Virus record (IMG/VR): IMGVR_UViG_2541047432_000021
Location: 1 to 4,357 of that record
Reading direction: 5' to 3' (one strand)
DNA: 4,357 nt
DNA from: a virus
Taxonomy: Duplodnaviria; Heunggongvirae; Uroviricota; Caudoviricetes
Position numbers: made by a program. Positions 1 through 3,000 of this stretch are shown here, piece by piece (position 1 is the stretch's first letter; each line of letters opens with the position of its first letter).

Positions 1-3000
1 TCAAATGCGCCAAAGGTTCCCAGTTTCAGGTTGTTTGTCGCCACTTTCGCATTGTGGTACATCACATTCAGGTCTTTTGCATCTGTCTGGATGTAGAACG
101 CTGCCAGCAGGTTATTCCCCCCGTCTCCGGTCAGGGCAACGCCCTGTGGCAGTGAAGATACCGGCCAGTAAAACGCCATAACATACTGGTTCGCAGCCAG
201 CACTCCCGAAACCTTAAAGCGGCAGCGAATCTGCCCCCCTTTCTGTAACAGAGCCGCACCGTTGCCCGCGGCGTACTCCAGCACCCAGCTGCTTTTACCG
301 GCTTCCTTGGTCAGCTTCACTGCCTTACCTCCGGTTCCCTCCGCATCGCTGACCACTTCTGCCCTGCCGCCACTGGCTGACCATCCCTGTACTTTCAGGC
401 TTCCCTCTGACTCGCTGGCAAGGTAAGAGAGCAGTGTTGTGACGCCTGTGGCTTCTGCACCGGAAGGCGATGACGGGCGCACCTCTGATACTGTCGATGA
501 TGCCCCCGCGTTTAGCGCCACTCTTCCCGCATGGCGCAAAATCGCCGTTGCCAGACGGTCGGAAATAATCCCGCGGCGAGCCCATGAACTGAAATGGCTC
601 GCCCTGTCCTGTGACGTCCAGGTGGCTGAGCTGTCACGCCATTTCGAACCGTAATATCCGATACCCGGAATGTCCGGGTCTTCTTCCGGTTTGTTCGTCG
701 GCACATTCACCCCGTTCTCATCCGTCATGAACGGTACGAAATGGATATTCTTTTCCGTTTTGTTTTTATAGCTGCCATACACCGTCTGGTACGTGGATTC
801 GTTCTTCTGCTTCCAGAAATACGTCGTGTCCCCGCATATCCAGGGAACACCGCCAGCAGAGCCACCGACGCACTGGCCTGCCATATCCGCCAGGTCTGCA
901 CGGAATTTATCAACCAGCGCACCAAACTGTGCGGCGTGATTTGCCGGCGTACCGCCAAAATCAAATTCCCCCTGCATCCACACCACGGCAAACAGCACAT
1001 TTTTCGGATTCTTCTTCAGTGCTGCTTTTGTTCGACCGATAAGGTCCTTATACAGCGGCTTGTCCACACCCCAGCGGGTTGAATTCTCCGAGGCACCACT
1101 CGCGTCACTGTATGTGCCATCGGCTCCGGTGGTGAACGCTGAACCACCACGACAGCACGGAACCAGCAGAATGCCCGCATTCGCCGGTATAAACGGCAGC
1201 AGTTTTTTGGCGATATGCAGCCCCTGCCCCACGGTTCCGTACTGCCCCTTTGACAGGTCCGCTTTCGGATGGTTAAGACGGCTCATGTCCTGCACATCAT
1301 GCAGACAATGGTCCGCCGGAATGATGTCGTTATATTTGCATACTGCACCGCCCGGTGTCACCGTACTGCGACGCGCTAACTGTTTAATACGTGGATCAGG
1401 GCTGTCGAATGTATCCGGCAATGGCAGTCCCTCACCGTATGACATACCATTGGACTGACCAGCAAGCGCGATCACATAGTAATATTCTGGCGCAACAGAA
1501 GGCGCTGAGGTCGTCGGACGGTTGCCTGGCTCCTCTGGTGATGAGATGCTCCCCTCACTCACAACTGGCTGGATGAACTCCGCACCATAACCAGCTGTCG
1601 AAATCAGCGCACTACCATAAGGCTGCCACCCTTCCTTCAGTTTTTGAGTTATTCGTTTCGCAAGGTCTGACGGCGACGCCGCCCTGACAACATCATAGTG
1701 TTTAAATGCCATGAATCCTCCCGGCCGGGATAATATTGTGAGTAAAATAAGGAGCGGGCTGAAGTCCGGAAGTTACAGGACAATGGCAGAAGGAAGACTA
1801 CAGCCCGAAATACGAAAAAGGCCGCGCAGTTGCGCAGCCTTATGAATCCTGGTTAAAATGATTTCGATTATTAAAACGAGTATCTCATGCAATTGCCCGA
1901 ACCCACTCGGGCTTTTTTACATGTAAAAAGGCCCCTGCTATGAGAGGCCTTGGTATATGCCTAATCTCTGTATACTGCATGGTGCCGGGTGCCTCCCGGT
2001 GAGTTCGGCCTGGTACCACCGAACCCGTGTCGATAATGAATCACAAGCAAGGATTTTTCACCAGTCGCCCCTCCACACAGGGGGATTCACCATGCGAAAT
2101 TTTTTTAACAAATGCTCAGTCTGACAGGCAACTGTCAACTGACTGAATTGTGACACAGATTACACTTGTTACCCACATACCACGAATCAGGTTATGCCTC
2201 AGTCATTATTAAACTGCACTTCAGCAAATCCGGAGCCTGATTCACAGGTACTGGATTTGATTGTGACAGTCATTCCTGTCAACTGAGCACTTTGCAGTAA
2301 CGGTTGCAGATTCCAGCGACTGGTCCAGTATTCTTTCCCGTCAACCTTCACTGTAAATGTGTCATCCTCATTATACTTGGAAAACTCAATTTTACCTTTA
2401 GCACAATCCGCCGCCATTGCATTAACAGAAGCTAATGCAAATAAAACCGCCATAAACATCTTCTTCATGCTTAACTCCTTTATTTACCCGTTGTATATAA
2501 AAACTGTGACTTTCTGTTCAGAAACGCTGCAGCTGTATTACTTTCCCATAATGTATTGTTTATTTTTATAACAGGCCTGTCGCCAGTTATCTGACATTCT
2601 GGTTGACTCTCTTCATTCACGGCGCGAACAGAACGCGCCCCCTGATGATGGCAATTCAGTATAACGGCCACAGTCCCCAGTATCGCTGATATATTATTAA
2701 AGGATATTCTCCCCACTCTGACACCATCCTCTCCCCGATACTCCGGAAGCACATTGCTGATTCGCCCCCAGTTCAGAGTGAGGTCCACGTCTCCCGGCGT
2801 CATCGTATACACAGGAGCAGTTTCAGACAGTGCCTGACGAAATTCTCTCTGTATCTGCCTGAAGCGTAAGGCTTCTGCTGTGACAGTGACAAAACGCAGA
2901 ACTGCTCTGGATGCATCTCTGGTCATTGTATTACCACTGAACTCCATTAACGCCAGATATGATGAAACCAGTGAGTGACGACTGATTTGCATTCCGGAAC

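Follow-up and report, generated by a model that had tools for sequence, protein, structure and literature searches.

The nanS-p genes found downstream of stx2a in Shiga toxin (Stx)-converting phages have been described before; the gene, its position, its activity, the diversity of its alleles and two domain structures are all published. NanS-p alleles are active esterases of 5-N-acetyl-9-O-acetylneuraminic acid (Neu5,9Ac2), they allow growth on this compound, and they de-O-acetylate mucin glycans (PMC8065619). The gene was present in all of the 59 Stx2a phages studied by Pascal et al. (PMC10462455). Biochemical statements on NanS-p made here are taken from these two sources, the first of which is a review. 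In phage phi24B the full-length orthologous protein, gp84 (about 70 kDa), is abundant in the virion. Hexamers of its DUF1737 domain occupy the central hexons of the T=9 capsid, where Tyr42 serves as a 'tooth' anchor and the density ends at Gly54, and after release gp84 is cut at linkers that contain SSP, SISSP being the proposed first autoprocessing site (bioRxiv 10.64898/2026.04.10.717836). Here we describe a nanS-p gene in a stretch of 4,357 nucleotides (nt) from the IMG/VR virus record IMGVR_UViG_2541047432_000021, hereafter the window. All protein and tRNA genes of the window lie on the minus strand, in the order Q-like regulator gene, tRNA genes, stx2AB, spacer, nanS-p.

The best explanation of the long open reading frame (ORF) at the left end of the window, taken in full and considered very probable, is that it encodes the NanS-p of Stx-converting phages, a late protein of three domains and about 645 residues, of which the first 570 are seen. 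The frame opens with the ATG at 1712 to 1710 and continues for 570 codons with no stop to window position 3. Its product shares 568 of 570 residues (99.6%) with the 933W protein L0105 (also z1466 and 933Wp42) and 568 of 570 with the phi24B protein vb_24B_21 (gp84); V257A and A504V are the only differences from either. An earlier reading of the window, made without database searches (the sequence-only reading), had proposed a NanS-p-type sialate O-acetylesterase. That identity is borne out by the SASA family match, by the structures 3pt5 and 6yp6, and by the near identity to the two phage orthologs. The long minus-strand ORF and its GQSN motif, at residues 85-88, lie exactly where that reading placed them, and the N-terminus that it called DUF1737-like is matched by Pfam DUF1737 itself. 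Matches to DUF1737, SASA and DUF6645 all exceed the Pfam gathering scores and follow one another in that order from the N- to the C-terminus.

The catalytic core is defined by two overlapping lines of evidence. The Pfam SASA match covers residues 152-276 (E 1.4e-10; score 41.6 bits, cut-off 24.8) and spans profile positions 55-158 of 226; the remainder is covered by the alignment with the chromosomal NanS (YjhS, PDB 3pt5), which matches residues 72-393 at E 5e-118 with 57% identity over 317 aligned residues. In this alignment Gln86, Ser87 and His373 correspond to Gln18, Ser19 and His301 of NanS, which serve that enzyme as oxyanion residue, nucleophile and base, respectively (PMC9063846). The RASH motif that contains His373 is given for NanS-p by Pascal et al. 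as a block IV variant, the other being RSSH (PMC10462455). Farther toward the C-terminus, residues 423-570 align with a single mismatch (E 1.9e-90) to 6yp6, a chain deposited under the name 'NanS-p', and the Pfam DUF6645 match (E 6e-45) runs over residues 489-570 and over profile positions 1-82 of 119. A sugar site has been proposed for this C-terminal domain (PMC10462455); three of its residues, Tyr510, Tyr515 and Tyr540, are present, and Phe611 lies beyond the window. The ORF also matches phrog_143 from end to end, and the matching PHROGs families carry no functional annotation.

The 933W ortholog L0105 is 645 residues long, which places the final 75 residues beyond window position 1. The sequence-only reading correctly took the gene to be cut by the window (570 of 645 codons are present) but looked for the missing part upstream; what is missing is the gene's 3' end. 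All 75 missing residues belong to the C-terminal lectin-like domain, and the window contains DUF1737 and the esterase core in full. As the entire catalytic domain lies N-terminal to the missing stretch, no lesion outside the window can cost the protein a catalytic residue, and this includes the stop or frameshift that the sequence-only reading had considered as a threat to its proposal. ORFs on the plus strand over the same interval (for example 1060 to 1458 and 741 to 1082) were rejected as shadow ORFs; it is the minus-strand gene that has homology support. The features of nanS-p and of the rest of the window are collected in Table 1.

Table 1. Features of the window, from left to right. Positions are those of the 4,357-nt window; residue numbers in the nanS-p rows are those of NanS-p.
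Feature	Position	Strand	Evidence or detail
nanS-p coding sequence, codons 1-570 of expected 645	1..1712	-	open frame; 3' end cut by left window edge
C-terminal lectin-like jelly-roll (DUF6645), residues 423-570 of 423-645	3..446	-	PDB 6yp6, Pfam
RPSSPSG linker, residues 412-418, second SSP motif, between core and C-terminal domain	459..479	-	motif search
SGNH type II / SASA esterase core, residues 72-393	534..1499	-	PDB 3pt5, Pfam SASA
His373 codon, RASH motif	594..596	-	aligned with catalytic His301 of NanS
Block I GQSN, residues 85-88	1449..1460	-	Ser87 (1452..1454) nucleophile and Gln86 oxyanion hole, by NanS alignment
SISSP linker motif, residues 55-59	1536..1550	-	motif search
DUF1737, residues 3-53	1554..1706	-	Pfam E 3.8e-18; Tyr42 at 1587..1589, Gly54 at 1551..1553
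Shine-Dalgarno GGAGG, 4 nt 5' of ATG at 1712	1717..1721	-	read from sequence
Terminator-like hairpin, 10-bp stem then UUUUUCGUAUUU, between small RNA genes and nanS-p	1818..1841	-	pattern scan; -18.3 kcal/mol, z -4.2
AsxR anti-small RNA gene, antisense to late transcript	1865..1917	+	Rfam RF02703, 88.1 bits against gathering 63; identical to consensus
STnc100-family small RNA, sense strand, convergent with AsxR	1919..2124	-	Rfam RF02076, 207.7 bits against gathering 47
Terminator hairpin of STnc100, U-run after	~1927..1951	-	folding -16.1 kcal/mol, z -3.9
stx2B, 89 residues	2199..2468	-	Pfam SLT_beta E 2.6e-48; 0 nucleotide differences from 933W
stx2A, 319 residues	2480..3439	-	Pfam RIP E 1.1e-29; 0 nucleotide differences from 933W
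tRNA cluster	3530..3779	-	ARAGORN, Rfam tRNA, 933W annotation
tRNA-Arg (TCT)	3530..3606	-	tRNA cluster
tRNA-Arg (TCG)	3620..3696	-	tRNA cluster
ileZ-type tRNA (anticodon CAT)	3704..3779	-	tRNA cluster
DUF1133 / Q-like late regulator, N-terminus cut by right edge	3919..4357	-	Pfam DUF1133, Phage_antitermQ

The closest relatives of the locus are those of 933W and phi24B. In both phages nanS-p has the late-region place, orientation, gene order and three-domain architecture seen in the window, and the stx2AB genes and the spacer with AsxR and STnc100 that lie upstream of it are identical. Positions 1 to 3819 are 99.7% identical to 933W, and positions 1 to 3701 differ from it at just two nucleotides, 202 (A504V) and 943 (V257A), both of them non-synonymous changes in nanS-p. 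V257A is in the esterase core, and A504V adjoins the proposed sugar-binding tyrosines. Alanine is the residue of chromosomal NanS at column 257 of the 3pt5 alignment, and the codon for A257 is shared with the non-stx nanS-p paralog of strain Balcarce_14.2. That paralog was the only match to the pattern around the position 943 variant among complete E. coli genomes, and among viral contigs there was none. The variant at position 202 is common among nanS-p paralogs, and the pattern around it was found in 7 viral contigs. That both variants occur in paralogs of other prophages suggests gene conversion between copies, a hint that comprises only two events and is not statistically meaningful.

A spacer of 486 nt (1713 to 2198) separates the stxB stop (2199) from the nanS-p start (1712). 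The sequence-only reading had the esterase gene immediately downstream of the toxin genes. The gene does lie in the late region downstream of stx2AB, but the word "immediately" cannot be kept, given the spacer with its two small RNA (sRNA) genes and two hairpins. AsxR is an anti-sRNA against FnrS; neither it nor STnc100 was mentioned in the sequence-only reading. The distance from the end of AsxR to the stxB stop codon is 282 nt, the value also reported by Tree et al. 2014, who described convergent sRNAs 3' of stx2B (PMC4104026). A scan for sigma-70-like promoters on the minus strand of positions 1713 to 2198 found none, and being a consensus scan it cannot exclude one; this result does not support an independent nanS-p promoter. 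Since two sense-strand terminator hairpins lie in the spacer, co-transcription with stx needs Q-type antitermination. Antiterminated late transcription is, we infer, the main route by which nanS-p is read. In line with this, norfloxacin is reported to induce z1466 and stx2 together (PMC8065619), and nanS-p expression rises by 1-2.4 log after mitomycin C (PMC10462455). Co-transcription of nanS-p with the toxin genes is plausible.

Homologs of nanS-p are also present in prophages that carry no toxin genes. In strains 493/89 (L012 2027..5994) and Balcarce_14.2 (L011 4876..8464) the order is Q-like gene, tRNA-Ile/Arg/Arg, cargo slot, nanS-p, holin, and in 493/89 the cargo slot holds TerB-family and DUF3927 genes in place of stx. 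The two paralogs (E3172_RS13710 in 493/89 and JKN69_RS09235 in Balcarce_14.2) share with the window gene the SASA and DUF6645 architecture and the slot, but they are other alleles, of 616 and 648 residues, with no stx upstream and with other cargo or none. A holin gene stands beside nanS-p in all comparators (933W, phi24B and both non-stx prophages); the window ends before the holin side. Up to 15 matching places are found per E. coli genome. The constant slot with variable cargo, together with the many copies, indicates that nanS-p is a conserved late gene and that stx2AB and the sRNA genes are inserted cargo, a view that the 'moron' description of Tree et al. fits (PMC4104026).

Residues 1-60 of the window protein are identical to those of phi24B gp84, and Tyr42, Gly54, SISSP and the second SSP motif are all present. 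By analogy with gp84 the window protein probably belongs to the virion as a conserved late component, and stx would be the inserted cargo. The course of events would be as follows. From its place in the late operon, after the Q-like gene, the tRNA genes, stx2AB and the sRNA spacer and presumably before the lysis genes, nanS-p would probably be read only once an antiterminated polymerase has passed the two sense-strand terminators, as the anatomy of the spacer implies. The N-terminus of the product is hydrophilic, which suggests that there is no signal peptide and that NanS-p would leave the cell only on phage lysis. To judge from the first 60 residues, DUF1737 may dock the protein as hexamers on capsid hexons, with proteolytic processing as the next step; after lysis NanS-p would be displayed on capsids or shed from them. 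The esterase would take 9-O-acetyl groups off Neu5,9Ac2 and off O-acetylated mucin sialoglycans, as shown for the 933W and EDL933 alleles, and the N-acetylneuraminic acid so freed, a shared resource, could feed surviving lysogens.

Two narrower accounts of the function can be set against this one. The sequence-only reading gave the gene a metabolic function, and so far as it goes this stands: NanS-p alleles have it, growth of EDL933 and O104:H4 on Neu5,9Ac2 needs them (PMC8065619, PMC10462455), and the catalytic core is homologous to the catabolic chromosomal NanS. That nanS-p is purely a metabolic gene of lysogenic conversion, encoding a soluble esterase by which Shiga toxin-producing E. coli grow on O-acetylated sialic acids and having no role in the virion or in the phage life cycle, is nevertheless rather unlikely. 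Such an account is incomplete, because the phi24B ortholog, identical over residues 1-60, decorates the capsid; it ranks among the proteins most plentiful in the virion, and DUF1737 has been resolved on the hexons. In both non-stx prophages nanS-p stands at one position, flanked by the Q/tRNA region and the holin gene, as a core late gene would and a moron would not, and expression goes up on induction, which is lethal to the producing cell. The opposite account makes NanS-p a capsid-displayed esterase and lectin that serves only the phage, in adherence to or passage through mucus or in modification of O-acetylated glycans on the surface of the host bacterium, with any benefit to growth incidental. 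The capsid location and delayed processing of gp84 and the lectin-like C-terminal domain with its aromatic sugar site speak for it, and a possible role in the phage cycle has been raised (PMC8065619). We consider it unlikely all the same, since the esterase domain is apparently cleaved off the capsid (bioRxiv 10.64898/2026.04.10.717836), a growth advantage on Neu5,9Ac2 has been measured (PMC8065619), and no experiment ties NanS-p to adsorption or mucus binding according to the review and the phi24B preprint (PMC8065619; bioRxiv 10.64898/2026.04.10.717836).

Other observations count against taking the ORF as a late NanS-p of the phi24B kind. The stretch between stxB and nanS-p holds two terminator hairpins, both strong, and an antisense sRNA; activity, expected here by analogy, is known from alleles other than the one with V257A and A504V; docking by DUF1737 would likewise be analogous to that in phi24B, the capsid genes being outside the window and a single preprint standing behind it; and an NCBIfam search of the NanS-p protein gave no model matches. 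There may also be an insertion sequence (IS) or a frameshift in the final 75 codons, outside the window. Insertions of IS1203/IS629 and of ISEc8 in or beside nanS-p are common among O157 Stx2a prophages, and the 3' end of the gene does lie beyond the window. A copy disrupted in this way, as in the Sakai Sp5-type prophages, with a C-terminally altered product, is still very unlikely: the Sakai-type IS1203v insertion site (after codon 557, at about window position 41) is uninterrupted, the 1,710 nt seen differ from 933W by two substitutions only with the frame unbroken, and a break beyond the window would spare both DUF1737 and the esterase core.

The right part of the window departs from 933W. 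The first differences are at 3702, inside the tRNA cluster, and the resemblance stops to the right of 3701. Relative to 933W, the window has a DUF1133-type regulator instead of Q933, and the tRNA cluster holds a recombination junction; the DUF1133/Q-like gene stands in for Q933 together with its ~400-nt pR'/qut/terminator region. The regulator matches DUF1133 over profile positions 45-176 of 176 (E 7e-73) and also Phage_antitermQ (E 6.6e-7). An exact look-up of its protein gave no match, probably because the right edge truncates the ORF. Its ortholog in strain 493/89 has 184 residues, and it is 97.6-99.7% identical to copies that come mostly from non-stx prophages. About 75 nt 3' of this gene, at 3820 to 3845 on the minus strand, a 9-bp GC-rich hairpin is followed by UUUUUUAUUG (-13.1 kcal/mol, z -4.95). 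This hairpin could be the tR'-type terminator target of the DUF1133 regulator.

In the collections searched, neither the complete E. coli genomes nor the phage records include one that is colinear with all 4,357 nt. The Q-tRNA-stx2 junction pattern was found in one viral contig (IMG/VR L002), which is 99.3% identical over window positions 1621-4357, and had no match in metagenome contigs or in the contigs of a one-genome-per-species collection. The nanS-p of L002 is a different allele than that of the window. At 11986..12237 of that contig DUF1737 diverges after residue 18, and the linker is shorter and lacks SISSP. The absence of SISSP from this linker indicates that not every allele has the proposed processing site.

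One further reading would make the window an undescribed recombinant late region, in which a DUF1133 antiterminator and ileZ were joined to a 933W-like stx2a-AsxR-STnc100-nanS-p block, with V257A and A504V acquired by gene conversion or by selection on substrate range. We assign it little probability. If it is true, the different antiterminator could alter the amounts of toxin and of NanS-p. Stx2 output is thought to be influenced by the type of antiterminator, and given this supposed effect the DUF1133/933W mosaic may matter more than the esterase.

The identification of nanS-p in the window is correct, and what it identifies is known. Its value as a discovery is small, since earlier work has already described, assayed, partly crystallized and surveyed across Stx phages the nanS-p that follows stx2a (PMC8065619, PMC10462455; 6yp6, 3pt5). 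What is gained is in annotation: the catalytic domain is complete in the window, the copy is not of the Sakai IS-interrupted type at the known site, and AsxR and STnc100 are placed in the spacer. After the 2026 work on phi24B, nanS-p is better seen not as an accessory to the toxin but as a conserved gene for a late virion-associated protein, with the toxin genes as cargo inserted beside it.

Two known systems outside the Stx phages can be compared with the window protein. The chromosomal NanS gene is part of the sialic-acid catabolic operon, not of a phage late operon. Its product (YjhS, 3pt5) shares with the window protein the SGNH type II core and the GQSN motif, and the catalytic Asp motif is absent in both; it is a single domain of ~326 residues, whereas the phage protein has in addition DUF1737 and the DUF6645 lectin-like domain. 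The decoration proteins of the T4 Hoc type, the comparison made in the phi24B preprint, resemble gp84 in being external, dispensable-looking domains at the centres of hexons, for which a role in mucus has been suggested. The two have no sequence relationship, and unlike T4 Hoc, gp84 is hexameric by means of DUF1737, is an active esterase, and is processed after release.

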